A model generated the notes under the pieces. It was not told the origin of the DNA. It saw nothing but the letters and a program-made list of their open reading frames with translations, and did no database searches. Of a stretch of 59,125 nucleotides of DNA, positions 7,552 through 58,681 are shown piece after piece. Location: positions 1 through 59,125 of the IMG/VR virus record IMGVR_UViG_3300036861_000222. One strand, 5' to 3'. A program made the position numbers and the translations under genes. Source of the DNA: a virus (taxonomy: Duplodnaviria > Caudoviricetes). Each line of letters starts with the position of its first letter. Position 1 is the first letter of the stretch.

Positions 7552-7622
7552 GCCTTCGTAGCCTAGTGGCAAGGCAACCGTCTCCAAAGCGATTGACAGA
7601 GGTTCGATTCCTCTCGGGGGTG
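7552..7622 (+). tRNA. tRNA-Trp(CCA)
   Basis: Cloverleaf, loop CT-CCA-AA, TTCGATT T-loop. Confidence 0.85.
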
Positions 7623-7733
7623 CTGAGTGTGTGAGTCCGTACACTTAGAAGGCCAAGCGCTTAACCAGCGTAACGGACTAACCAGCCTAGGTCGCTCCTA
7701 GGACTGGCAAAGGCTCCTGGTGGTTCAGGGGTA

Positions 7734-7806
7734 AACGCGGTAGCTCAATGGTAGAGCAGGGCCCCTAACCCGGGCCCGGATCTGGGTTCGAGTCCCAGTC
7801 GCGTTA
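7734..7806 (+). tRNA. Atypical tRNA, 6-bp anticodon stem, loop CT-AAC-CC (nominal Val-AAC)
   Basis: Canonical acceptor, D and T arms; non-standard anticodon arm. Confidence 0.65.
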
Positions 7807-7920
7807 CGGAAGCGATACCGGCTCCGAGGACGCCCACAGGTAGTCCTCTGACTGGACCTTGAGAGCGTCACTCTCTCAGGGTGTGCGTGACAGGTGTGAT
7901 GGCCTGGGTACGCACTGCGA

Positions 7921-7992
7921 CGCGGGATAGCTTAAAGGTAGAGCACCTGGCTCATAACCAGGATGATGCGGGTTCGACTCCCGCTCCCGCTA
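7921..7992 (+). tRNA. tRNA-Met(CAT), initiator-like C1:U72 mismatch
   Basis: Cloverleaf, loop CT-CAT-AA. Confidence 0.88.
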
Positions 7993-8050
7993 CGAGAACG
8001 GTTCGGAAGGTTCATCGGGGGATGGTCACCTGAATACCGAGCCGTTCGCT

Positions 8051-8133
8051 GGAAAGTCTGAGACTTGGTGTCTCGCCCCGGTTGCTACCTGGGGACATCC
8101 TTCGGGATGACGGTTCGATCCCGTGACTTTCCG
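8051..8133 (+). tRNA. tRNA-Ser(GCT)
   Basis: Long variable arm with TTCG loop, anticodon GCT, G73. Confidence 0.8.
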
Positions 8134-8136
8134 CAT

Positions 8137-8222
8137 GGAGGGTAGCGCGCGTTGGTGCGCAAGCGGTCTTGAAAACCGTGCCAGGGTGAAACCTGAGGGT
8201 TCAACTCCTTTACCCTCCGCCA
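8137..8222 (+). tRNA. tRNA-Ser(TGA)
   Basis: Long variable arm, loop CT-TGA-AA, encoded CCA. Confidence 0.88.
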
Positions 8223-8338
8223 ACTACATAGGCGTTATTCGAGATTCCGCACACCTCCGAATAACGCGCGTGGCTCCCCCAGGACGCCACGTGTACCGGG
8301 TGGGTCTTTCATCTCCACACTTCCCACCCGGTACGAAC

Positions 8339-8418
8339 GGGAGTCCGATGCAGGTGCATCACCCAGCCTGTAAAGCTGGTGTCCATGGACAAGGTTGGTT
8401 CGATACCAACGGCTCCCA
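8339..8418 (+). tRNA. tRNA-Tyr(GTA)
   Basis: Loop CT-GTA-AA, extended variable arm. Confidence 0.82.
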
Positions 8419-8419
8419 C

Positions 8420-8493
8420 GCCGCGTTAGAGTAACGGTTATCTCACCAGGTTCTCAACCTCGGAGACTACGGGTTCGAATCCCGTACGCGGTA
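8420..8493 (+). tRNA. tRNA-Glu(CTC)
   Basis: Loop TT-CTC-AA, cloverleaf. Confidence 0.85.
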
Positions 8494-8502
8494 CGTGAAT
8501 AA

Positions 8503-8575
8503 TCGGTTGTGGTGCAACTGGAAGCACGCTAGGCTTTGGTCCTAGAGGTTCCTGGTTCGAACCCAGGCAGCCGAG
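8503..8575 (+). tRNA. tRNA-Gln(TTG)
   Basis: U1-A72, loop CT-TTG-GT, G73. Confidence 0.85.
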
Positions 8576-8580
8576 CTTGA

Positions 8581-8652
8581 TCCCTGGTAGTTCAGTGGAA
8601 GAACGCCGAGCTGTTAACTCGGATGTCGTTGGTTCGAATCCAGCCCGGGGAG
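8581..8652 (+). tRNA. tRNA-Asn(GTT)
   Basis: Loop CT-GTT-AA. Confidence 0.92.
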
Positions 8653-8671
8653 CGTCACAAGTGAACATTGA

Positions 8672-8745
8672 TGCTTGCTAGCACAATTGGTAGTTGCGTC
8701 CGGCTCTGAACCGGAAGGTTCCTGGTTCGAATCCAGGGTGAGCAG
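8672..8745 (+). tRNA. tRNA-Gln(CTG)
   Basis: Loop CT-CTG-AA. Confidence 0.9.
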
Positions 8746-8826
8746 CGTTGGGGCTATGTGAACGTAAGACTGTCGCAGAGAACGGGCATAGACGTATCTC
8801 ATAAAACGCAGGCACCCCATTGATAA

Positions 8827-8899
8827 GGTCCGTTAGAGTAGTGGTTATCTCACCTGGCTTTCATCCAGGAGAAGACCGGTTCGATCCCGGTACGGACTA
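8827..8899 (+). tRNA. tRNA-Glu(TTC)
   Basis: Loop CT-TTC-AT. Confidence 0.9.
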
Positions 8900-8915
8900 C
8901 GCAAGACAACTTCAT

Positions 8916-8988
8916 GCTTCATTGGCGCAGGGGTTAGCGCAACGGCTTGTCACGCCGTAGGTCGCGGGTTCAAGTCCCGTATGGAGCG
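8916..8988 (+). tRNA. tRNA-Asp(GTC)
   Basis: Loop TT-GTC-AC. Confidence 0.92.
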
Positions 8989-9029
8989 CAAGGCTTCCAA
9001 GTCTTCTAGTCGGTCGCTTGGAAGCCAGA

Positions 9030-9101
9030 CGGGATATGGCCCAGTGGTAAGGCGCTTGCTTTGGGAGCAAGACAGCGGAGGTTCGATTCCTCCTATCCCG
9101 A
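9030..9101 (+). tRNA. tRNA-Pro(TGG)
   Basis: C1-G72, loop TT-TGG-GA. Confidence 0.92.
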
Positions 9102-9103
9102 CT

Positions 9104-9178
9104 GAGTGTGAAGCACGAAGGCAGTGCGCCCGGTTGTGGTCCGGGATTCTGCGGGTTCGAGTCCCGTCACACTCCCCA
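9104..9178 (+). tRNA. tRNA-His(GTG)
   Basis: Loop TT-GTG-GT, C73, encoded CCA. Confidence 0.88.
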
Positions 9179-9187
9179 ACTTCATAA

Positions 9188-9260
9188 GCTCCGGTAGCCC
9201 AACGGTAGAGGCATCAGGTTTAGGTTCTGATCAGTGGGGGTTCGAATCCCTCTCGGAGTA
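9188..9260 (+). tRNA. tRNA-Leu(TAG), short variable loop
   Basis: Loop TT-TAG-GT, Leu-type D arm, 5-nt variable loop. Confidence 0.88.
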
Positions 9261-9261
9261 C

Positions 9262-9334
9262 ACTCGCCTAGCCCAACGGTAGAGGCGGCGCTCTCAAAAG
9301 GCGTTCAGTCCTGGTTCGAATCCAGGGGCGAGTA
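9262..9334 (+). tRNA. tRNA-Leu(CAA), short variable loop
   Basis: Loop CT-CAA-AA. Confidence 0.88.
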
Positions 9335-9402
9335 CGTTGTTACCGCAACATATATCCTAAGAAACCACAAACGTGACATAATGCCAGTTATGTCACCCAT
9401 AT

Positions 9403-9475
9403 GCCCTGATAGCTCAACGGATAGAGCGACAGCCTACGAAGCTGGTAGTTGGAGGTTCGAATCCTTCTCAGGGCA
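9403..9475 (+). tRNA. tRNA-Arg(ACG)
   Basis: Loop CT-ACG-AA. Confidence 0.92.
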
Positions 9476-9556
9476 CGAAGGCATCTTTCAAGTTCGGGTA
9501 CGGAACAGTCAAACAAGGCTGTACGTTAGGGATGGGCAGACGAAGCCCGAACACAT

Positions 9557-9627
9557 GCGGTAGTAGCTTAGTGGCAAAGCGTCTGTCTTCCAAACAGATA
9601 ACGGGAGTTCGATTCTCCCCTACCGTT
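9557..9627 (+). tRNA. tRNA-Gly(TCC)
   Basis: Loop CT-TCC-AA, U73. Confidence 0.9.
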
Positions 9628-9696
9628 CGGGGAGTGATGGGTTAGGACTCCGCATCAAAACTTCACCTCGGTTCCCGCGCAAGCCGGAACCGCCAT

Positions 9697-9770
9697 GCCC
9701 TTATAGCTCAGTAGGTTAGAGCAGTCGCCTTGTAAGCGAACGGTCCGGGGTTCGAATCCTCGTTGGGGCT
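9697..9770 (+). tRNA. tRNA-Thr(TGT)
   Basis: Loop CT-TGT-AA. Confidence 0.9.
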
Positions 9771-9842
9771 CAGCAACATGGCAAAGTGGGTTGTCGTGTT
9801 GAGTGGCGTCTCAAGCCTGGGACTTCAGGCTTGAGATGTTAC

Positions 9843-9914
9843 GTCTTGCTAGCTCAGTTGGCAGAGCACAGGATTGAAACCCCTGGTGGCGTGGTTCGAT
9901 CCCACGGCAGGACA
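9843..9914 (+). tRNA. tRNA-Phe(GAA)
   Basis: Loop TT-GAA-AC. Confidence 0.85.
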
Positions 9915-9929
9915 CGTTACAACTACATT

Positions 9930-10002
9930 GGGTCATTAGCTCAGTAGGTAGAGCTCTGTTCTCTTAAATCAGATGTCGTAGGTTCGATCCCTACATGACC
10001 CA
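9930..10002 (+). tRNA. tRNA-Lys(CTT)
   Basis: Loop CT-CTT-AA. Confidence 0.9.
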
Positions 10003-10006
10003 CTTT

Positions 10007-10081
10007 GCGCCGTTAGCTCAGTTTGGTCAGAGCTGTGTACTTTTAATACACAGGGCGAAGGTTCGAATCCTTCACGGCGTA
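10007..10081 (+). tRNA. tRNA-Lys(TTT)
   Basis: Loop CT-TTT-AA. Confidence 0.92.
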
Positions 10082-10082
10082 C

Positions 10083-10155
10083 ACCCTGTTAGCTCAGTGG
10101 ATAGAGCGGGAGGTTTCTACCCTCCGCGCCCCGGGTTCGAATCCTGGACAGGGTA
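10083..10155 (+). tRNA. tRNA-Arg(TCT)
   Basis: Loop TT-TCT-AC. Confidence 0.9.
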
Positions 10156-10156
10156 C

Positions 10157-10229
10157 AACGCGGTAGCTCAGTGGTTAGAGCGGCATCCTGATACGATGCG
10201 GGTCCAGGGTTCAAATCCCTGCCGCGTTA
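10157..10229 (+). tRNA. tRNA-Ile(GAT)
   Basis: Loop CT-GAT-AC. Confidence 0.92.
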
Positions 10230-10230
10230 C

Positions 10231-10303
10231 GCACCATTAGCTCAGCGGAACGAGCGGCTGTCTTACAAACAGCGGGTCGGGGGTTCAACTCCCTCATGGT
10301 GTA
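10231..10303 (+). tRNA. tRNA-Val(TAC)
   Basis: Loop CT-TAC-AA. Confidence 0.92.
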
Positions 10304-10383
10304 CGGATGGATTGATCACCATCAAATCCTAGATAACCGCTGCGTCCTGGCCTAGGCACCCTTCGAGGTGTAAGGATGCGTTA

Positions 10384-10456
10384 GGGCTGTTAGCTCCAAT
10401 GGTAGAGCATCTGTTTTGCATACAGAGGGTTGTCGGTTCGAATCCGTCACGGTCCA
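10384..10456 (+). tRNA. tRNA-Ala(TGC)
   Basis: G3:U70, loop TT-TGC-AT. Confidence 0.92.
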
Positions 10457-10572
10457 CGGTGAGAGTTCCGGGTGTTCTAGACTCCCCCGGAACCACCCGC
10501 TATAGCCATTCTCCAAACCTCCAGTACGGCCGTACGTTCACGAGGAGCGGATGACCCTGCCTTTAGCGTCAA

Positions 10573-10646
10573 GGCGTGATGTCCGAGTGGTCAGGTAACG
10601 GCCTGCAAAGCCGTTCACGTGGGTTCGAATCCCGCTCACGCTTCCA
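10573..10646 (+). tRNA. tRNA-Cys(GCA)
   Basis: Loop CT-GCA-AA, U73, encoded CCA. Confidence 0.9.
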
Positions 10647-10764
10647 ACCTCATATGAGCGCGCATGAGCGCGCACCGCTCAGTGAGCGCGCATCCTCCGG
10701 GTTGCGCGCTCATTTTGGTGTCTGATAGAATTCGTCAACGACACGACGAACGAAGGACGAAACG

Positions 10765-12021
10765 ATGAATGACTTTGCATCAACACCCGAGGGAGCGCTC
10801 ATCATCGCGTGCGCGTTCGGAGCGCTCATGATCGCACTCATCCTGTGGCGCACCGCAGGAGGCGCGCGTGCGCGCGCATCTGAGAAAGCGCGCGCATGGG
10901 CTGAACTGAAGCGTCCCGAGTGGGAGGAGCGCGCATCGCGCAAACGAGAAGCGCGCGCATCTGGAGCGCGCGCAGACGCGCGCTTGCGCATTGCGCTCCT
11001 GAGCGCGGTTGCGCTCGTTGCGATCGCAGCCACCAACCTGAGCGCTCACGCTACGATCAACGCGATTCGGCGCGCAGGGCTGGACAGCGTTGACGCTGCT
11101 ATCTCCGTGGTGATCGTCTTTGAAGCGTTCCTGATGATCCTCGGAGCACTGTCCTGGTGGCACATGAACCGAGGCACGGGCCCCAACTGGTATGAGGTGG
11201 GCGTCTGGTCTATGGCCGCGCTCATGGGAATTGTTGCCTGGTGGGGTGGACACAACCCCATCTTCGCGTTGTGGCCCCTCTTGGCGGCTATCGCCTGGCA
11301 CGTGGTTATCACCTTCGGACGAGAGCACAAGCAGTCAGCGCTCATCACCTGGTGGCGCATGAAGCGTGGCAAGGCCACCTCGCAGGACGCAAACGTGGTG
11401 CTCACTGAGCGTCTGATCACGGCCATTGTTGATCACGGTTACGCGGCCAACGAAGGAGCGCGCGCACTGCGCGCATTCCATGAGCGCGCATTCAACCGCG
11501 CATGGGCGCGAGCGGATGCGCTCGGCATCCTCACCCCCGAAGTGCGCGCGCGCATCCAGACGCGCATTGCCGCTCGCTACGCCGGAGCGCGCGCGCTCGC
11601 CCCTGAGAAGGTTGAGCACATGAACCCGTGGAATGAGCGCGCAATGAGCGCTCCCTCTCGGAGTGCGCGCACGGTGCGCCCGGTGAGCGCTCCTCCCGCT
11701 CCCGCTGTCGAGGTGAGCGCGCATGGAGAAGTGAGCGCGCATGACGAGCGCGCATCTGAGGATGAGCGCGCAACGGAGGTTGCCGAGACGATCACCGTTC
11801 CTACGTACACTGAGAGCGCCTATTCCAAGGGTGAGCTGGTGGAAGCTATTGAGAAGTTCTTTGCCAGCAAGAACATGGTGGCGAAGGAATGGGCCAAGAC
11901 GTTCGTTGAAACCAACGGTGTCCTTCCCAACGGTGATGACCTTGCGCGGTTCACCCGGAAGACGGCAGCCAACTGCCGGAAGTGGATGGCTCCGGTCCGT
12001 AAGGAACTGGGTCTCAGCTAA
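10765..12021 (+). CDS. SpdB/DUF2637-like multi-pass membrane protein with C-terminal HTH
   Basis: About 5 hydrophobic segments, Pro/Ala linker, C-terminal LPNGDDLARFTRKTAANCRKW HTH-like; own promoter (TGaTAGAAT) and RBS; upstream of TraB-like gene. Confidence 0.6.
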   Translation: MNDFASTPEGALIIACAFGALMIALILWRTAGGARARASEKARAWAELKRPEWEERASRKREARASGARADARLRIALLSAVALVAIAATNLSAHATINAIRRAGLDSVDAAISVVIVFEAFLMILGALSWWHMNRGTGPNWYEVGVWSMAALMGIVAWWGGHNPIFALWPLLAAIAWHVVITFGREHKQSALITWWRMKRGKATSQDANVVLTERLITAIVDHGYAANEGARALRAFHERAFNRAWARADALGILTPEVRARIQTRIAARYAGARALAPEKVEHMNPWNERAMSAPSRSARTVRPVSAPPAPAVEVSAHGEVSAHDERASEDERATEVAETITVPTYTESAYSKGELVEAIEKFFASKNMVAKEWAKTFVETNGVLPNGDDLARFTRKTAANCRKWMAPVRKELGLS

Positions 12022-12029
12022 GCTCAGGA

Positions 12030-12227
12030 GGCTGGCACACCCCCGGATGGGGGTGTGCCAGTCCTGTTCCCAGGTCTCCAGATCTGGCACACCTACAAAC
12101 CACGGTTGACCTGCGGAAATACTGATTTGGCACGGCTGACACGCTGTGCCAGCGTCTGCGAGGGCGTAGCATTTCCGCAGGTCACAGCCATCCACCAACT
12201 GACAATCTGGCATGGCGTGCCGTGCCG
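12030..12227. repeat. Intergenic TGGCAC/GTGCCA repeats, hairpin and 14-bp inverted repeat
   Basis: Hairpin 12030-12063; TGACCTGCGGAAAT (12107-12120) and ATTTCCGCAGGTCA (12171-12184). Confidence 0.75.
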
Positions 12228-12280
12228 GAATGGTGTATGATTAAATACCTAGTCAGAGATGAAACGATAGGAAGATACAC

Positions 12281-12718
12281 ATGATTGAGACTGCCATCGA
12301 CCAGACAGCCGGAGGGCTCGCGGTTGCGTTCTTCCTCTGGGCCTGGTGGACAAACCGGAGGAGCGACAGCAGGGCTGCGGGTATTTCAGCTGTCATCCTT
12401 GCCATCGTGGGATCGATGCTGTTCTATGCTGCTCCGTGGTCGCTGTGGTTCGCGAACCTTGTCGCCTCCATTCTCCAGATGTTCGGAGATTTCCCGGTAC
12501 ACCCGGTTATGACCATTGCCTGTCTGGCACTGTTGGGGGGTGTGGTCTTCGACCTCATCAATGACCCGACGTACAACGTCGGCGCTGTATGGGCGCTTAT
12601 CTTCGCTCCGATCATGGCGCGCGGCGCGGCTGGCCTTGCAGGTTCGTTCTTGGAGCAGCTGTTCGGCGGCGCTTCGATGGCGTTCCTCGACGCTGTGAAG
12701 CACCTCTTCGGAGCCTGA
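12281..12718 (+). CDS. Small multi-pass membrane protein (Spd-like by context)
   Basis: 4 hydrophobic segments; stop 1 nt before the TraB-like start. Confidence 0.75.
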   Translation: MIETAIDQTAGGLAVAFFLWAWWTNRRSDSRAAGISAVILAIVGSMLFYAAPWSLWFANLVASILQMFGDFPVHPVMTIACLALLGGVVFDLINDPTYNVGAVWALIFAPIMARGAAGLAGSFLEQLFGGASMAFLDAVKHLFGA

Positions 12719-12719
12719 C

Positions 12720-14567
12720 ATGAGCGCTCATGAGGAGATCGAAAACGATGAGCGCGCACTGTCGCGCTATGCGCGCGCGTCTTGGGATCTCGCTTCCCAA
12801 GGCGCGCGCCGCCATGTTGAACGTGCGCGCGAGTGGGTGCGCGCTGAAGGCCTAGAGGATCACATGCGCGCTCAAGAGGTCAAGCAGATGAGCGCGCGCA
12901 ATGAGCGCGCATCGAAGCAGCGAGCGCGCATGTCCAAGCGAGCGCGCGCGAGCGCGCATCCGCCAGCACCTGTGCGCGCCATGAGCGATCTTGAGCTGAA
13001 GTCGCGCGCATTCGGTACGCGCGCACTGCGCTCACTCGGAGCACTCAGCGTGCCGTGTGCGGTAGCGGCCTATCCGGTCTGGAGCCTCGCGCAGGGTGAC
13101 CCCGTGCCGCTTCTGCTGTGGCCTTCCGCCTACGGGTACCTGGTGTGGGACGGATGGATGTTCCTGAACAGGGAAGAGAAACGAGCTGAGGGCGATGAAC
13201 GAACTGAGCCGCTTCCTGTCGAGAACGGGAAAGTACCCGTCTTCCGTCCGCAGCGTCTGACAGAACTGCCTCCCACTGCGGAGGAAGTGCAGATCATCCA
13301 CCGAATCGACACATGGGCGGAGCGCGCGGAGGAGCGGAAGCTGCAGGACGTGGTTCCGCAGCACCCTGTGATCGATGAATCAGGGCTCCTCATCCCCATG
13401 GATCTGACGGGGCAGTGGACACGGGAAAAGCTCGGAGGCCAGGTCAGCCAGATTCGCGCGCTCCTGGCGGTACCGGATGGTATTCAGACGCAGGTGAAGC
13501 CGGGAGGTACCGCCGACCGCGCGGTGTTGCGGGTGCGGACACGTATCCGTGACCTCGATCTGGCTTGGAACCCTGAGCGCAAGGGGTTGGGGCTTGACGC
13601 TGATACGGCCGAGATCATCACTATTGACATCACTGACCGCATCCTCGTTGCGGGAATGTCGGGTGCTGGTAAGTCGGTAGTGCTGCGGACGCTCATGGCG
13701 GAAGTCCTCGGCCTCATCCACACGGTTGTGGTCATCATCGATCTGAAAGTCGAGGGCGCGTTGTGGGCGCATTGCGCTCGTGTCGAGTCGAAGAAAGGAG
13801 GTATTGAAGGCCTGGTATCCGAGCTGATCGCTGAGATGGAGGAACGGGAAGACATCATGCGTGAGCGCGGGATGGACCTGTGGGAACCTACCGCTGAGCG
13901 ACCGCGCATCGTGGTAGTGGTTGATGAGGGAGCCGAGCTGATCGGGGGTGTTCCTGACTGTATCGACAGGATTCGAACCCTCGCGGTGCGGGCCCGAAGC
14001 TCCCAGATGCCTGTCTGGTGGGCTACGCAGAAGCCGACAGTCACTGGAGCAGGGCGTGGACTCGACACCATGATCTCCGCGCAGCTGACCACGATCATCT
14101 GTTTGGCGGTTACCTCCCCTCAGGAGTCGCGCACCGTACTTGGGGAGGACGCTACCGCTAACGGTTGGGATGCTGACGAGCTGTTGAAAGGTGGCTGGGC
14201 ACTCGTCCGTACACAGGGGGAGCGGAAGGTTCCGAACCCGGCCAGGGTCTGGTTCATGACGAAAGAGGATGTGAAGGCGATCCCTCCGCGTGAGGCGTGG
14301 AGGCGAAAGAAGGCAGGCGTTGAGGCAGTGCCACACATCCTGGCGGTAGCACTGAAGTTGTCCGAAGGGCTGCAGGGTGTTTCCACAGCGCAACTGGTGT
14401 CAGTCCTGGGGTTCACGGATACTGAGGTACACACGCGACTCCGCGCGCTGGGCGCCTCACCCGAACCGAACGCCTTCGCCATGGGCAATGGAGACAAAGC
14501 GCGTGGTTATCGACGCTCTGTGCTTGAATCTGCACTAATGACTGTGAGGGGTCAGTATGAGGCTTAA
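12720..14567 (+). CDS. traB: TraB-like FtsK/SpoIIIE dsDNA translocase
   Basis: Two N-terminal TM segments, Walker A GMSGAGKS, IIDLK, Walker B VVVVDE, ARS finger, WATQKP, C-terminal wHTH ending RGYRR. Confidence 0.8.
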   Translation: MSAHEEIENDERALSRYARASWDLASQGARRHVERAREWVRAEGLEDHMRAQEVKQMSARNERASKQRARMSKRARASAHPPAPVRAMSDLELKSRAFGTRALRSLGALSVPCAVAAYPVWSLAQGDPVPLLLWPSAYGYLVWDGWMFLNREEKRAEGDERTEPLPVENGKVPVFRPQRLTELPPTAEEVQIIHRIDTWAERAEERKLQDVVPQHPVIDESGLLIPMDLTGQWTREKLGGQVSQIRALLAVPDGIQTQVKPGGTADRAVLRVRTRIRDLDLAWNPERKGLGLDADTAEIITIDITDRILVAGMSGAGKSVVLRTLMAEVLGLIHTVVVIIDLKVEGALWAHCARVESKKGGIEGLVSELIAEMEEREDIMRERGMDLWEPTAERPRIVVVVDEGAELIGGVPDCIDRIRTLAVRARSSQMPVWWATQKPTVTGAGRGLDTMISAQLTTIICLAVTSPQESRTVLGEDATANGWDADELLKGGWALVRTQGERKVPNPARVWFMTKEDVKAIPPREAWRRKKAGVEAVPHILAVALKLSEGLQGVSTAQLVSVLGFTDTEVHTRLRALGASPEPNAFAMGNGDKARGYRRSVLESALMTVRGQYEA

Positions 14568-14793
14568 GTGGGTCAGAGATGACACGAGTATGTACACGTA
14601 CCGTGCTGAGTCGATTCGGTATCGATTCATCATGATCGTACCTCCGCGCGCGCGGACGACACTCTGGGTACAGCACACCACCGACGACTGGGGCAGCAAC
14701 CCGATCGATCAACGGTTGTGCCGCTCACGGCGTTACGCTGAGCATGTGGCGCAGCGGTTCGAGAACCAAGACAACCCGCGTCGCCTGAGATGA
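14557..14793 (+). CDS. Hypothetical protein
   Basis: GAGG RBS, overlaps the TraB-like stop. Confidence 0.6.
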   Translation: MRLKWVRDDTSMYTYRAESIRYRFIMIVPPRARTTLWVQHTTDDWGSNPIDQRLCRSRRYAEHVAQRFENQDNPRRLR

Positions 14794-14797
14794 CACC

Positions 14798-15511
14798 GTG
14801 AACTGGTATCGACTCCGCGTGGAGATCGCAGCATGGGCAATGCGTTCGTGCATTTCGGTGCTGACCTTCCTGGTAATCGTGCGTGTGCTGTTCATCTCAA
14901 GAGAAGGCATGCGATCCTACGCGATCTCACTACGCTTCCTTGCTGAAAACGAGTGGGTGTTGTACGCCGGGCTCCCGTTGGGAATCGCGATCCTATGGCT
15001 GTGCTACTGGCGGGTGTTCCGTGTTTACCGAGGAAGACGTCGTTATAAAGAAAACCCAGTTCGCCTAGGAGGTCATGTGCGCAGAACTGAACAACCCGCA
15101 GCCCCTCGCACTAGTGAGGGGCTGCGTCCCCATTGGGAGGAAAAGGCGGCGTGTCGAGACTACAACAACAAGTATCAAGACCCTTGGGACGCTGACCCCA
15201 GCGTGGGTCATGTCAACTCGGAGGCGCACAGTTTCTGTGGCAGATGCCCGGTGAAGCGTGAGTGCCTACTAGCAGGCCTGCGAAGCGACGCACTCAACAA
15301 CGGCGTTGCTTTTGGTATCTGGGGAGATACCGCACCCAAGCATCGCCGAGCCATGATCCGAGTTCGCTACCGTCAAGCGTGCCCTGTTTGTAAGGGGAAG
15401 CTCGTGATCACAGCCAACGGTGAGGAGTGGCAGGCATGTGCCTCATGTGGGATCACCTGGCGCTGTAAGAAGCGTGTCGTCTTCACGCACGGTACACAGC
15501 AACCCAGCTGA
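14798..15511 (+). CDS. whiB: WhiB-family regulator with N-terminal TM region and C-terminal zinc ribbon (possible internal start at 15077)
   Basis: W...AAC, C..CPV...CL, GIWG; CPVC...CASC; AGGAGG before GTG 15077. Confidence 0.82.
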   Translation: MNWYRLRVEIAAWAMRSCISVLTFLVIVRVLFISREGMRSYAISLRFLAENEWVLYAGLPLGIAILWLCYWRVFRVYRGRRRYKENPVRLGGHVRRTEQPAAPRTSEGLRPHWEEKAACRDYNNKYQDPWDADPSVGHVNSEAHSFCGRCPVKRECLLAGLRSDALNNGVAFGIWGDTAPKHRRAMIRVRYRQACPVCKGKLVITANGEEWQACASCGITWRCKKRVVFTHGTQQPS

Positions 15512-15965
15512 CAGGGATGTCCACCCATGTGGCCGTGGTTGCCTGTGATTGGTACACGAACATCGTGAATCCTGTTGTAGTGATCGTGATCGCCCGAGAC
15601 TCCCAGCGTGCTGTAACTCCTGCGCCTGAGTCGATGTTTGTTGTGATCGTGGGCAGCGTCGGGAACGTGAATCCAAAGTTCACAACTGCGGTGGATTGGC
15701 TCAGCGTCGTGAACGAGATGAGCACCGTGCCGCGTCTCGTCCAGTTCGTCAAGTTGGTGATGTCGGTCTGGTTTGATGCGATATTTGCCTGGTTAGCTGC
15801 GATCAAAGACCCTTGAGTCGAGACTGTGGTTTGCAGTGACGAAAGCGCAGCGTCAACCTGAACAGCCAGGACTGGCATCGTGGCGGTAGGCCCTCCGGTC
15901 AACGTCGTCCCAGGAAGCGACGTGGGCGACTCGTAGTCGAAGCCGTAAGTACTGGTATTAGGCAT
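15483..15965 (-). CDS. Minor tail / receptor-binding-like protein
   Basis: MPNTSTYG N-terminus, coiled coil, beta-rich C-terminus (FPT.P, TTTGF, W.A). Confidence 0.65.
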   Translation of the reverse strand: MPNTSTYGFDYESPTSLPGTTLTGGPTATMPVLAVQVDAALSSLQTTVSTQGSLIAANQANIASNQTDITNLTNWTRRGTVLISFTTLSQSTAVVNFGFTFPTLPTITTNIDSGAGVTARWESRAITITTTGFTMFVYQSQATTATWVDIPVSWVAVYRA

Positions 15966-53059: not shown

Positions 53060-53466
53060 CCTGTCCGGGATCCCCACCTGTCTGGGGTGTCCGGGATCTT
53101 TTGCATTGCAGCTCTAGCATTTCATATTCTAACAGTACAAGCGTTATATTTAGCTTCTCATAGCAATTATCTAAAAAGTATCCCAGACATCCCGGACAGC
53201 TAGAAAAGAAGACCAGGTCACAGCCATAATCGATCCCAGACACCATCCCAGACACCATCCCGTGCACCACCCCCTCAGATCCCGGACAGTGATAACGAAT
53301 CGATAAACCCCTGTAATCGCCTCACTACGCTCTGCTACCTGTCCGGGATACCTGTCCGGGATGTATCCCGGACAGGCCGGACAGGGAAAAGCCCCGATTT
53401 TCGTCACTCTCAGTAACAAAAACCGGGGCCTGTCCGGGATGCACGGGGTCCTACGCGACCCGGACA
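53060..53466. repeat. Iteron array (TGTCCGGGAT/ATCCCGGACA) around an AT-rich core; putative replication origin
   Basis: More than a dozen 10-bp copies in both orientations flanking AT-rich 53098-53179, at the 3' end of the helicase gene. Confidence 0.75.
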
Positions 53467-55163
53467 CCCTTCACGATCGGGGTCCGACCCTGTGACGGGG
53501 GAAGCTTTGCGTCCGTATTGACCTGTCCGGCGAACGCCGCTTTGAGGTCTCGGAAGAACACGTTCTTCCCTTTTACACCGAATCCCGCATCGGTCGTCCA
53601 CATGACGTACATGTCGTACAACGCGGTTTTCAGCGTGTAGGCGTCAGCCTCGAACTCCAGACAGTCCTGCGCGAACGCGATCACGGGCGACCCTGCCCGC
53701 TCCGCGTCACGCATGGCGCCCTGCACGGCCGTTCCCGTCGTGAACCTCCCGCCCTGACCCCAGAGGCGGTCAGCGCCCTCCATGGCCCATCTGAGCACTC
53801 CCGGCAGCTCAGATCCGAGCTTCGCCTTCAGCCCCAGATCCTCTCTGCCGAAGAACGACGCCTCAGTTGTCAGCGGTATCAGGCGCGAGGCAAGCGCCCC
53901 GGTGGTGTCGCGCAGGTCTGGAAGGTCGTTGGAGAGGATCACGATCCGGGCGTCCAGCTTGGCGACGATGGGCGACTGGTGCTTGCGGTCAATCGTGATC
54001 GGGTCCTCGCCCGAGATCATGAGCAACCGCTCCACAATGGCCGGATCAGACTTGGCGATGCGGGCGTCGCCGATGATGGCCAGCCGCTTGCCGAGCATGC
54101 CCGCCAGGCCGAAGTTGGTTGCCAGCGACGCCATGGTCGGGTGGTCGACCTGGCGGGATCCGCCGAGCAGCTGCTCCATCACCCAGGACACCGTTCCCTT
54201 GCCTGAGCGCTTGGGACCGATGAGGGTAAGCATCTTCTGAAGCGAGGTGTCCCCCGTCAACACATAGCCGAACCATTCCTGCAACAACGCCTGCGAGTCC
54301 CCGTCGCCGGGCCACAGCTCTTCGAGGAACTGCATCCATCGGCCACATCGCGCCCCCGGCTCCCACGCCACGGCCACGGCGGTGTCGGTGAAGAACTCAG
54401 GCGTATGCGGCAGGAGTGTGCGCTCACGCTCTCGCTCCAGACCAGCGCCCACGCCCACGTCCGCGCTCGCCGCCCTGGGCGACCACAGCAGCCCGTTAGC
54501 CACACAGGTCACCTCAGCCCCAGGCGTTCCCTTCTCGCGCTCATCCCAGTCCACGAGCCACGTCCCAGCGGACATGCTCTCGCTGGGCCGCGACTGCGCG
54601 GCCATCGCCTCCACGACTTCGGTCACACTCGTCCGGCTCGGAGCCCAATCCCGGACATCTACGGTGTCCTTTGTGGTCACTGTGTACTTGGCGTCCGAGA
54701 GCACGCTCCGCACCGAGTCGGCAACGGCGTACCGGTTGTCAGCACCCGTCAGGCGCTGGTATGCACCTCCGGTCCTGGCGCCCCTCCATAGATACCAGTC
54801 ATCCCGCCAGTGTTTGAGATGGACGCCTTCGCGTGCGTACAGGTACAGCAGGAACCGCGCTACCGCGTCGGGCTGCCTCGGCCCGGGAACCGGGCCCTCT
54901 GATACGGGCAGCGCGGAGGGGAGCAGGCGGAAGTGATCGTCAACGGCGATCACCTGCGTTGCCACGTCTTCGGCAGCTGTTTCGGTGCCCGACGCGCCAT
55001 CCGAGCCATTCGCGGCGTCTGCACCGCCTACCTTCGGCGCAGGCGGCGTCAGGCCTCCCAGGATCATGCTCCGCATGTCCAGGTCTACATGCCCGTTCGT
55101 GCCGTTCATTGTCTTTGCGTCGTTGCTGTCGTGATCGTGCTGGGGATCGGTTGCAGCGTCCAT
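53451..55163 (-). CDS. P4/D5-family SF3 helicase
   Basis: NGLL, LQEWFGY.L, GPKRSGKGT, ISGED.I.IDRK, SNDLP, C-terminal wHTH. Confidence 0.92.
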   Translation of the reverse strand: MDAATDPQHDHDSNDAKTMNGTNGHVDLDMRSMILGGLTPPAPKVGGADAANGSDGASGTETAAEDVATQVIAVDDHFRLLPSALPVSEGPVPGPRQPDAVARFLLYLYAREGVHLKHWRDDWYLWRGARTGGAYQRLTGADNRYAVADSVRSVLSDAKYTVTTKDTVDVRDWAPSRTSVTEVVEAMAAQSRPSESMSAGTWLVDWDEREKGTPGAEVTCVANGLLWSPRAASADVGVGAGLERERERTLLPHTPEFFTDTAVAVAWEPGARCGRWMQFLEELWPGDGDSQALLQEWFGYVLTGDTSLQKMLTLIGPKRSGKGTVSWVMEQLLGGSRQVDHPTMASLATNFGLAGMLGKRLAIIGDARIAKSDPAIVERLLMISGEDPITIDRKHQSPIVAKLDARIVILSNDLPDLRDTTGALASRLIPLTTEASFFGREDLGLKAKLGSELPGVLRWAMEGADRLWGQGGRFTTGTAVQGAMRDAERAGSPVIAFAQDCLEFEADAYTLKTALYDMYVMWTTDAGFGVKGKNVFFRDLKAAFAGQVNTDAKLPPSQGRTPIVKGVRVA

Positions 55164-55302
55164 GTTATGGTTCTCCTATCTTCAGTCGAATGATGATCGG
55201 GGCGCTTCCTTCGGGAAGCGCCCCGCTGGCGTCAGGAGCCGATATCGCCCGGCGTATGCGGTTGTGTGACCCGGCTCGCTGTCGATGCCGGGTTCCCATA
55301 CC

Positions 55303-56175
55303 CTACGTCTGCCCCATGGCGGCCTGTCCGGCATTCCAGCCTGATTCGAACGTGCGACGCTCCCGCGCCTCGTCCCCGCCTCCGATGCGCGCCATAACAG
55401 CCCAGACCTGCGCCCAGGCGTCGTCTTTCGTCATCTGTCCTGATATGCCGAGCTGGTAGGACACCTTGTTGAGCATGTCGTTCCGGCCGCCTTCGGGTGC
55501 GCGGCCCAGCTGTGCGAGGGCCCTGCGATCACGCCAGGCCGACCACTCGGGGTCATACCGGTCACCAGGCTCCGTCAGCGGCACGGGGCGTTTCCTGGTG
55601 AGTTCTACCAGCCATGCGGGAGCCTCCGTGATGCCCACGCGGCGGATGCCCTCCGGGCCGCGCGGGATCACCTGGTAACCGTCCCAGCCAGGGGCGCGGA
55701 CCAGGCCGCGTTCAGCCCTGACATCCAGTCCGGGCCCGAGGCGGTTGTTCGCACCTGTCGAGTTTCGCACGCCCTCAGTCCAGCGAAAGTAGAGGTGCGC
55801 ACCCCCCGAAGGGGTAGCGACGCCCATCGTTCGGGTGAAATCCTCGGGATCGTATTCGTGCCGGGAGCACAAGCGCCGCAACGTGTCGAAGCCGTTGACA
55901 CCGTGCTTGACGTCGATATCGAGCACCCAGATACCCGAACCGGGCCCGCAGGCGATACCGACCCCGTAGCCGGAGTACTCGCCCCCGGTCCACCAGTCTT
56001 CAACCTGTGTTCGGTCGGTGGTGGCCAGCTCGGGCCATGCTTTGAGCGCGGGCGTTCCGGCTTGTGGCACCAGGGGGAACACCCGCAGCCCCAGACACGT
56101 ACACACGTACGCAGCTGCTCCGGGTGTTCTGGCCTGCCCACCCGCAGCGGTAGCGCTGAACTTGACAGTAGCCAT
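55303..56175 (-). CDS. Bifunctional primase-polymerase (Prim-Pol)
   Basis: VFPL, GIACG...SG..VLDID.K, TPSGG.HLYF, LDVR, G.RN..L. Confidence 0.92.
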   Translation of the reverse strand: MATVKFSATAAGGQARTPGAAAYVCTCLGLRVFPLVPQAGTPALKAWPELATTDRTQVEDWWTGGEYSGYGVGIACGPGSGIWVLDIDVKHGVNGFDTLRRLCSRHEYDPEDFTRTMGVATPSGGAHLYFRWTEGVRNSTGANNRLGPGLDVRAERGLVRAPGWDGYQVIPRGPEGIRRVGITEAPAWLVELTRKRPVPLTEPGDRYDPEWSAWRDRRALAQLGRAPEGGRNDMLNKVSYQLGISGQMTKDDAWAQVWAVMARIGGGDEARERRTFESGWNAGQAAMGQT

Positions 56176-58492: not shown

Positions 58493-58681
58493 GTGACACC
58501 ATCGAACCATGACTTGATGACCCCTAGCGAAGTGGCGAAAGTCCTCCGCGTTGATCCAAAAACAGTGACGCGCTGGGCCGCTGCGAACAAGGTGGGTTCA
58601 GTGAAGACTCCAGGTGGACATATACGCCTGTTTCGAGCGGAGATCATGGAGTTGATGGAGTCTTCGACGCAGGAGCGGTAA
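58493..58681 (+). CDS. bldC: BldC-family MerR-like HTH regulator
   Basis: LMTPSEVA...RVDPKTVTRWA...K...KT.GGH.R matches the BldC signature; GAGGAG RBS. Confidence 0.85.
   Translation: MTPSNHDLMTPSEVAKVLRVDPKTVTRWAAANKVGSVKTPGGHIRLFRAEIMELMESSTQER

Follow-up and report, generated by a model that had tools for sequence, protein, structure and literature searches.

As set out in the available text of two papers on plasmid transfer (PMC4447253; PMC3583192), the TraB or Tra protein of a plasmid forms a hexamer in the membrane, reads short clt repeats by means of its winged helix and pumps unprocessed double-stranded DNA (dsDNA). The clt loci are direct repeats to which this winged helix binds, and Spd membrane proteins interact with TraB and are required for spread across cross-walls. 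The pSVH1 system, with its TraB, clt and SpdB3-Spd79-SpdB2 set, is described in these terms in the available part of PMC4447253: a winged-helix pump reads short repeats, and Spd partners are needed for intramycelial spread. Here we consider the same working model for a locus carried by a tailed phage. It lies on IMG/VR record IMGVR_UViG_3300036861_000222, whose full 59,125 bp we refer to as the window, and consists of a gene for an FtsK/SpoIIIE-type ATPase, two genes for membrane proteins (orfA and orfB) and a dense array of short repeats. Judged by its sequence, the ATPase is a dsDNA pump of hexameric type that belongs to the Streptomyces Tra/TraB clade and is probably membrane-associated, and the module as a whole is a core part of an uncultured phage lineage.

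The Tra protein (KilA) of pIJ101 from S. lividans, a plasmid that also has SpdA, SpdB, KilB and KorA, has the same domain order as the phage pump: a coiled N-terminus, a hydrophobic hairpin, an FtsK-type motor with the motif TQKP and a C-terminal winged helix. Plasmids of the pIJ101/pTSC1 type and the phage alike encode, beside the pump, proteins with several transmembrane (TM) helices and a C-terminal domain resembling a helix-turn-helix (HTH). There are also differences. The membrane genes precede the pump in the phage, whereas spdA and spdB follow tra in pIJ101; the phage winged helix is of a different subtype, common to Nocardiopsaceae proteins; no GntR regulator of the KorA type was found among the phage open reading frames (ORFs) scanned, unlike pIJ101, which has KorA; and the phage module is carried by a tailed phage with a full virion gene set rather than by a plasmid. 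Compared with pSVH1, the window has no match to SpdB2/DUF2637, and its array is far larger and more dispersed than the 8-bp clt repeat set of the pSVH1 type. The features discussed below are as follows.

10655-13025, + strand: repeat array with core GCGCGC and consensus tGAGCGCGCAt, made of the quasi-palindromic unit TGAGCGCGCA
10655-10712, + strand: intergenic head of the array, with three direct copies and one inverted copy of TGAGCGCGCA, just after the last tRNA gene
10765-12021, + strand: orfA, 418 amino acids (aa)
12022-12280, + strand: non-coding region, conserved in relatives
12281-12718, + strand: orfB, 145 aa, with about four hydrophobic/TM helices; its stop adjoins the ATPase start codon
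12720-14567, + strand: ATPase, 615 aa, FtsK-fold dsDNA translocase of the Tra/TraB clade
ATPase residues 1-90: N-terminal coiled region
ATPase residues ~102-149: hydrophobic hairpin
ATPase residues ~185-530: FtsK alpha/beta motor, with Walker A at 311-319 and Walker B at 398-404
ATPase residues 539-598: winged helix, followed by a terminal helix to 614

The three ORFs lie where a preliminary description of this DNA, made from the letters alone, had placed them, and its reading of the largest as an FtsK/SpoIIIE ATPase with intact Walker motifs is borne out. The protein matches Pfam FtsK_SpoIIIE (PF01580) with an E-value of 1.3e-8 and 35 bits (cut-off 24) and PHROG 17958, 'FtsK/SpoIIIE-like', with an E-value of 2.5e-56. 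In two family alignments the Walker A motif GMSGAGKS (G317, K318) and the Walker B motif VVVVDEGAE (D402, E403) are invariant at the residues given. The motif after sensor 1 is TQKP across the whole Tra family, including pIJ101 Tra, where FtsK has TQRP. A near-invariant arginine, R426, aligns with the arginine of the FtsK 'KAR' motif, which we take to be the arginine finger of FtsK. An AlphaFold2 model built from 45 sequences (mean pLDDT 90) begins with a long coiled region, followed by a pair of adjacent helices (90-125 and 129-161) and an FtsK-like alpha/beta motor, and its best Foldseek matches are the coupling protein TcpA of pCW3, a conjugation protein, and FtsK motor domains (E-values ~1e-16). 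The C-terminal winged HTH that had been proposed is present in the model as helices 539-547, 556-563 and 567-576 and a beta hairpin at 582-598, the block having a pLDDT of ~79-93. Its recognition helix, (T/A)EVHxR(M/L)R, is kept across the phage clade, as are the intact winged helix as a whole and all motor motifs. The ATPase had also been called membrane-anchored. In the region of the two adjacent helices the 19-residue Kyte-Doolittle maxima are 1.48 (at 106-124) and 0.93 (at 131-149), so the hairpin is only moderately hydrophobic and anchoring in the membrane no more than likely.

The relatives of the ATPase point to transfer elements. By BLASTP it is 36% identical to pIJ101 Tra over 370 aa (E-value 3e-57, 192 bits), and a tblastn search of 72,556 plasmid records matched 17, of which 16 are labelled Streptomyces and are mostly shorter than 20 kb; pIJ101 is among them, and there the match falls on the tra gene. 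The seventeenth, a 5.3 kb record labelled Pseudomonas, has the same match as pIJ101. An exhaustive search gave 1,469 relatives at E-values up to 0.001, the nearest full-length named ones being from Halostreptopolyspora alba, a metagenome-assembled genome (MAG) of Nocardiopsaceae and Nocardiopsis dassonvillei. A cellular survey, in which one genome per species was scanned, yielded 80 loci: 69 in Streptomycetaceae, seven in Nocardiopsidaceae, one in Pseudonocardiaceae, one in an unclassified MAG and two on short contigs labelled Corynebacterium and Paenarthrobacter. Many of these loci carry GntR genes of the KorA type (50 tblastn matches), and NUDIX, ParA and Prim-Pol genes and SpdB homologues also occur. 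Among NCBIfam models the best match is plasmid_TraB (NF041214; E-value 1.1e-14), with EccC and FtsK ranking below, at 54 bits, far under the model's curated cut-off of 800. Since pIJ101 Tra itself has no match to NF041214 at E-values up to 0.01, the low score reflects the TraB subtype, the model covering another one.

Three short contigs from assemblies labelled Lentzea, Corynebacterium and Paenarthrobacter (L058, L061 and L072 in our numbering of loci) encode a pIJ101-like Tra and KorA, and the first two also SpdB. Their SpdB proteins are 99.7% (L058) and 67% (L061) identical to that of pIJ101, and the KorA proteins of L061 and L072 82-84%. These contigs may represent small plasmids, vector carry-over or cross-contamination.

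A tree was built from 137 ATPase cores ('quick' search, LG+G4), from which rows more than 80% identical to a kept row had been dropped, except for 24 named key rows; it was rooted on three chromosomal FtsK proteins from Streptomyces genomes and left out TraSA-type, SffA and pSVH1-type TraB proteins. The window and its phage relatives form a single clade (support 100) inside a 71-row clade (support 96) that also holds the Tra proteins of pIJ101 and pTSC1, phage YDN12 and elements of Streptomyces and Nocardiopsaceae. The chromosomal FtsK proteins (3 rows) and the EccC-like proteins (6 rows) fall outside it. Thus, on the phylogenetic evidence, the ATPase belongs to the Tra/TraB clade of plasmids and integrative elements and not with chromosomal FtsK or EccC, which is the outcome of a check that had been named beforehand for the TraB assignment.

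Other phages carry members of the same family. Among 50,697 phage records, 20 Streptomyces phages matched the ATPase, 19 of them with the gene annotated as an FtsK-like or FtsK/SpoIIIE-like translocase; a megablast of 10700-15600 against the same records matched nothing. These translocases, 29-36% identical to the window's, occur in YDN12, TP1604, Geonosis and other members of Woodruffvirus, in Xkcd426, in the JustBecause/Satis group and in Mischief19. Unlike in the window phage, the gene stands at the genome end, and the phages have no tblastn match to orfA or orfB. Papers on these phages name the gene 'FtsK-like' and draw no link to Tra. In YDN12 (locus L002, 3656-7449), gp69, a small TM protein, and gp70, a multi-TM protein with a C-terminal HTH, are encoded just upstream of the pump; both are published as hypothetical, and homologues of gp70 adjoin the Tra gene in two Streptomyces loci (L048, L074). 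The YDN12 pump falls together with pIJ101 in a subclade different from that of the window, so phages seem to have gained such pumps more than once.

The closest counterparts of the module in bacterial DNA are rows of an SpdB-like, an orfB-like and a Tra gene in Nocardiopsaceae: Halostreptopolyspora alba (L008), Streptomonospora (L010, L012, L043) and Nocardiopsis (L022, L044). The ATPases encoded there align with that of the phage over nearly their full length at 34-36% identity, including the subtype of the C-terminal domain. The next large gene upstream in these rows encodes a true SpdB homologue: it has four TM helices, a coiled coil, a winged HTH at the C-terminus and the motif PLAAKxLW, which is also found in SpdB of pIJ101. 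In the phage its place is taken by orfA, which has the same build, homology being undetected. The rows lie in bacterial DNA of ~70% G+C, and their neighbours include genes for Prim-Pol, NUDIX, ParA and GntR proteins. A scan of 45 ORFs from five loci (L008, L009, L012, L022, L043) showed no virion genes, and the presence of Prim-Pol, NUDIX, ParA or KorA-like GntR genes fits integrative or plasmid transfer elements. Unlike the phage, these rows gave no comparably clean repeat array in a k-mer search.

The phage seems to be a member of a common uncultured lineage. orfA has 146 close homologues in metagenome assemblies, many on contigs of 58-63 kb, with 60-71% identity among the 120 listed. Within IMG/VR we found 37 loci with an orfA homologue, seven of which end within 200 bp of orfA, leaving 30 that can be evaluated. 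All 30 have the ATPase (44-64% identity), and 29 have orfB (28-78%) in the same order, so that the three-gene unit whose survey in related phages had been suggested does recur. The remaining locus (L145) has no orfB match at an E-value of 1e-5 or below, yet keeps an 870-bp gap at that place. Wherever the DNA of the relatives extends far enough, the order orfA, orfB, ATPase, a 78-aa ORF and a WhiB-domain gene is retained. By this comparison the module is a core part of these phages and not a recent insert, and 10655-14567 forms a conserved early-strand operon that probably extends to 15511.

The module is further marked by its repeats. Of all 9-mers, GAGCGCGCA is the most frequent in the genome: its 16 copies (14 on the + strand, 2 on the - strand) all fall within 10656-12950, and 53 of the 78 GCGCGC hexamers in the genome lie between 10 and 13.3 kb, in ~3 kb. 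The sites form four groups (intergenic, orfA codons 33-72, orfA codons 232-334 and ATPase codons 11-100), and the copies fall in all three reading frames. At the head of the array the last direct and the inverted copy of TGAGCGCGCA make a 13-bp hairpin (10683-10712), followed by TTTTGG. One could suppose that such an excess is a mere by-product of peptides rich in alanine and arginine, and we rejected this explanation on the basis of recoding controls (1000 synonymous recodings per gene, either by genome-wide codon usage or by shuffling within the gene) and a per-dipeptide comparison with 22 other genes. In orfA, 28 GCGCGC were observed against 5.2 (genome-wide usage) or 11.3 (within-gene shuffle) expected, and seven GAGCGCGCA against 0.26 or 0.71; in the ATPase gene, 21 GCGCGC were observed against 5.4 or 8.3. 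None of the 1000 recodings reached the observed number in any of these cases. Phage genes with 12-14 Ala-Arg dipeptides have 1-2 GCGCGC, and the two module genes, with 28-30 dipeptides, have 21-28. The array is among the strongest examples we have met of a DNA signal written into coding sequence through the choice of synonymous codons.

The repeats are shared by the lineage. All 37 relatives have the GCGCGC hot spot, at a density of 7.6-33 copies per kb within the module and 0-3.7 per kb in flanking DNA. When 38 genomes are pooled, the module regions hold 190 copies of GAGCGCGCA on the + strand and 66 on the - strand, whereas 315 kb of flanking DNA holds 0 (+) and 8 (-). In L151, the relative that diverges most, a perfect palindrome, GAGCGCTC, replaces GAGCGCGCA, from which the shared core is TGAGCGC and the site a 10-bp quasi-palindrome. 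Co-variation between the motif and the recognition helix is uninformative, the helix being conserved and the motif shifted in L151 only. The k-mer search of Nocardiopsaceae loci, pIJ101, pTSC1 and YDN12 gave weak local clusters only (CCCGGGACG in L044, GAGGCGCC in L012), on which we do not rely. As to its role, the array may serve for loading in the manner of clt, or its sites may be operators that regulate expression.

Of the two membrane proteins, orfB is the one that can be traced to transfer elements. In six cellular loci (L008, L009, L010, L012, L043, L044) the gene immediately before Tra encodes a homologue of it, with 28-35% identity and E-values of 3e-6 to 3e-11 in what is a small database, and in an alignment with the Nocardiopsaceae homologues identity is 26-32%, with shared motifs throughout. 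From this position and these common motifs, the pump and orfB form a conserved pair in phage and cellular elements alike. A tblastn search of orfB against the 50,697 phage records gave no match, Pfam, PHROGs and NCBIfam gave nothing meaningful, and a word-index search returned close phage relatives only.

orfA resembles SpdB in another sense. From the N-terminus, a single TM helix and a loop rich in Ala and Arg lead into a membrane domain of four helices; a conserved helical domain comes next, and after it a disordered linker and the C-terminal domain. Its hydrophobic maxima lie at 10-28, 76-94, 111-129 and 166-184; the structural model adds a helix at 142-162 and has a confident four-helix, HTH-like domain at 355-415. 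A four-helix membrane domain, a helical cytoplasmic part, a C-terminal HTH-like domain and a place near the Tra gene are what SpdB proteins have too. A language-model search put the DUF2637 and the SpdB_N / HTH_SpdB_C clusters nearest to orfA (0.89, 196 shared features), which we treat as a lead only. tblastn of orfA against the 50,697 phage records and the plasmid records gave no match, Pfam, PHROGs and NCBIfam gave nothing meaningful, and Foldseek found no match of the model in the PDB at E-values up to 0.001. On the strength of its model and gene position, orfA is thus SpdB-like in architecture and position only, and likeness of build is not membership. The two genes had been presented as part of a TraB + Spd module: the four-TM orfB is a conserved partner of the Tra gene, and the 418-aa orfA lacks detectable homology to SpdB or DUF2637. 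Overall, the preliminary interpretation was right for the pump and partly right for its partners, and for the function it is open to rivals.

Between the two genes, the non-coding region 12022-12280 contains a perfect 13-bp hairpin (12032-12061), a 17-bp inverted repeat (12107-12184) with arms 44 bp apart, about seven [CT]GGCAC repeats and a -10-like TATGAT that is TATAAT in relatives. A strict promoter scan of the region found none. We consider it probably a regulated promoter for orfB and the ATPase gene, and a 61-aa ORF at 12055-12240 is probably not a gene. The [CT]GGCAC repeat loosely recalls the clt repeats of pJV1, which the available text of PMC3583192 gives as CCGCACA(C/G)(C/G).

The function that best fits the module, and one that we favour tentatively, is virion-free spread of phage DNA. 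The winged helix of the pump, or the HTH domain of orfA, would bind the array and so mark the phage DNA; the pump, sitting in septal or lateral membrane with orfA and orfB, would thread replicating phage dsDNA into neighbouring hyphal compartments or hyphae. Such a scheme would parallel that of plasmid TraB, clt and Spd, and infection could advance within the mycelium before lysis and without receptors. As far as predicted proteins can tell, all testable protein features of the plasmid scheme are present, except for a Kor-type regulator and a demonstrable Spd homology of orfA. The more complete statement would be that lytic phages of a widespread lineage, infecting mycelial actinobacteria, have domesticated a conjugation pump together with its membrane partners and ~37 loading sites, and so drive their replicating genomes through cross-walls or into touching hyphae; in our view this is possible and rather doubtful.

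Several points weigh against virion-free spread, and some of them fit a different account equally well. BLASTP of orfA against pIJ101 SpdB gave no match; when the orfA family was compared with an SpdB alignment by hhalign, the probability was 4.5%, over the C-terminal HTH only, which is not significant; the DUF2637 hidden Markov model had no match in the window at E-values up to 10 and matched none of 40 orfA family members. The mycelial host is placed solely by where homologues occur; the benefit that a host-lysing phage would draw from moving its DNA before lysis is no more than plausible; and the available text of papers on Streptomyces phages (PMC11536984, PMC13587820) proposes only replication or development roles for the FtsK-like gene. 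The array itself is unlike the clt loci known so far: these have 4-9 repeats in 50-200 bp, against ~37 sites over 2.4 kb here, and the strand bias of the array is only ~2:1. Its quasi-palindromic sites suit a dimeric regulator, and it makes the mRNA unusually structured, the RNA of 12700-13060 folding at a z-score of -2.98 with none of 100 shuffles as stable. It is thus conceivable, and we give it appreciable though minority weight, that the array is regulatory, consisting of operators or 'stoperator'-like sites for a dimeric HTH repressor, or of self-pairing GCGCGC tracts in the mRNA, which would silence a toxic kil-type Tra operon; the pump might then still move DNA by way of another signal, e.g. 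the [CT]GGCAC repeats at 12022-12280. Unregulated traB is toxic and is usually held in check by a GntR Kor protein, according to the available text of PMC4447253, and no GntR Kor, TraR or KorA regulator was found in the 58 phage ORFs scanned against Pfam. The 10-bp quasi-palindrome and its perfect form in L151, the hairpin-forming copies in the upstream intergenic region and the conserved inverted-repeat promoter region between orfA and orfB point the same way, and palindromic form, huge copy number and structured mRNA would fit the repression of a toxic operon at least as well as they fit loading of DNA. Such a role is harder to reconcile with sites scattered through 2.4 kb of coding DNA rather than placed at promoters, with a strand bias of 14:2 for GAGCGCGCA in the window (190:66 in the pooled counts), and with the lack of any candidate repressor beyond the module's own HTH domains.

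Plasmid tra and spd genes cause growth retardation in pocks, and the module might be a host-takeover or kil device acting by growth arrest, permeabilisation of septal membranes or displacement of host DNA, with no phage DNA moved between compartments. The Kil-Kor systems of plasmid tra genes and the ability of SpdB2 to make pores in membranes (PMC4447253, in its available part) would agree with this, as would the PHROGs category of the family, 'moron, auxiliary metabolic gene and host takeover', and the position of the operon, which follows the replication genes and tRNAs on the early strand; mere toxicity, however, would need neither a conserved, intact, sequence-reading winged helix with motor motifs nor a phage-specific repeat array, and we consider it unlikely. 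The pump could also act inside one cell, in membrane anchoring or segregation of genomes, in septum clearing, or in prespore loading that leads to a spore carrier state. FtsK-fold motors do such work for chromosomes, the replication or development roles proposed by the phage authors cited above would be of this kind, and the operon ends with a membrane-anchored WhiB-domain protein, the WhiB family being tied to sporulation control. The protein nevertheless groups with conjugative Tra and not FtsK, and its conserved partner genes are those of transfer elements, which makes action inside one cell improbable. We attach very little probability to a role in excluding or defending against other mobile DNA, such as superinfecting phages or resident conjugative elements: the ATPase does match PADLOC mad8 (E-value 1.2e-16, residues 290-502), but this match, at 59 bits, covers the ATPase core only, as against 192 bits over 370 aa to pIJ101 Tra, and the neighbouring genes match no other PADLOC model.

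The idea of DNA transfer in phages has precedents. One is the Streptomyces plasmid-phage pZL12/phiZL12, a precedent for phage-borne transfer in the available text of PMC3583192, and in the available part of PMC4487206 pZL12 is a 90-kb temperate plasmid-prophage with ParA/ParB. The window phage is set apart from it by description, since no partition, integration or repressor genes were found in its scanned ORFs. Thoma et al. 2015 remarked on phage homologues of SpdB2 (PMC4447253, available text). In a search whose coverage left out most subscription journals, neither a lytic phage with a Tra module nor a comparable repeat array turned up in any paper. What is new here is the apparently lytic lineage, the fixed module and the repeat array. 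How a phage advances through the compartmented mycelium of an actinomycete is poorly understood. If virion-free spread were true, models of plaque growth, of containment by host development and of escape from surface-receptor resistance would have to include a second route that needs no virions, and the module would be a bacterial counterpart of plant-virus movement systems, allowing cell-to-cell spread without virions or receptors and beyond the reach of extracellular defences. The lineage is a clean test case: every evaluable relative has the module, the candidate DNA site is sharply defined and, since the phage looks lytic, plasmid-like maintenance is not a confounder.

The window is the whole record. 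The same 127 bases occur at both ends, and the gene for DNA polymerase I spans the junction between them, from which it is a complete, circularly assembled phage genome of ~58,998 bp; its G+C content is ~58%. A rightward block on the + strand holds genes for DNA polymerase, helicase, exonuclease, a Sak4-like annealase and a single-stranded DNA-binding protein, then the tRNA genes, then the pump module; a leftward block at ~15.5-41.3 kb holds genes for tail, adaptor, major tail, major head (594 aa) and portal proteins, endolysin and the large terminase. The relatives of the capsid protein are distant, all below 37% identity, and nearly all are from actinophages of Mycobacterium, Gordonia, Microbacterium and Streptomyces. 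Scans of 44 ORFs against PHROGs and 58 against Pfam, which left out ORFs under ~50 aa, found no integrase, ParA/B, GntR or CI/Cro-type repressor. This accords with what had been claimed of the genome, namely capsid, tail, terminase and lysis genes together with no recognisable integrase, repressor or ParA/B, and by its gene content the phage looks non-temperate, i.e. apparently lytic. We infer that the host is a mycelial actinomycete, as had been suggested; a Streptomyces host in particular does not follow, for the closest full-length cellular relatives of the ATPase belong to Nocardiopsaceae.

The neighbours of the module are the following.

7552-10646, + strand: 26 tRNA genes in an array that immediately precedes the module, including Cys, Trp and two each of several amino acids
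14557-14793, + strand: ORF of 78 aa overlapping the stop codon of the ATPase gene, which it also follows in relatives; no family match
14798-15511, + strand: WhiB-domain protein, 237 aa (Pfam E-value 3.5e-11), last gene of the rightward block

The tRNA array fits a lytic phage, given that the G+C content of the phage (58%) is well below the ~70% of its likely hosts. WhiB proteins are normally small and soluble. The WhiB-domain protein encoded here is predicted to have two TM helices in its N-terminal part and has a CxxC...CxxC stretch in its C-terminal part, and in some relatives only the WhiB part aligns, so its membrane part is variable or lies in a separate ORF. The sole clear small DNA-binding regulator found outside the module is a 62-aa HTH_17 (excisionase/MerR-like) protein (58493-58681, + strand), encoded just upstream of the DNA polymerase gene and without an accompanying integrase. 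We also considered a second module derived from an actinomycete integrative and conjugative element, and dropped it: the Prim-Pol shares only 34% identity with its counterpart in the Halostreptopolyspora element (L008), and the adjacent helicases and genes are unmatched. The Prim-Pol and DUF5906 (D5-type) primase-helicase genes lie at 53451-56175 on the - strand, with their neighbours on the other one; G+C is raised in this stretch and reaches 66% at 54-56 kb.

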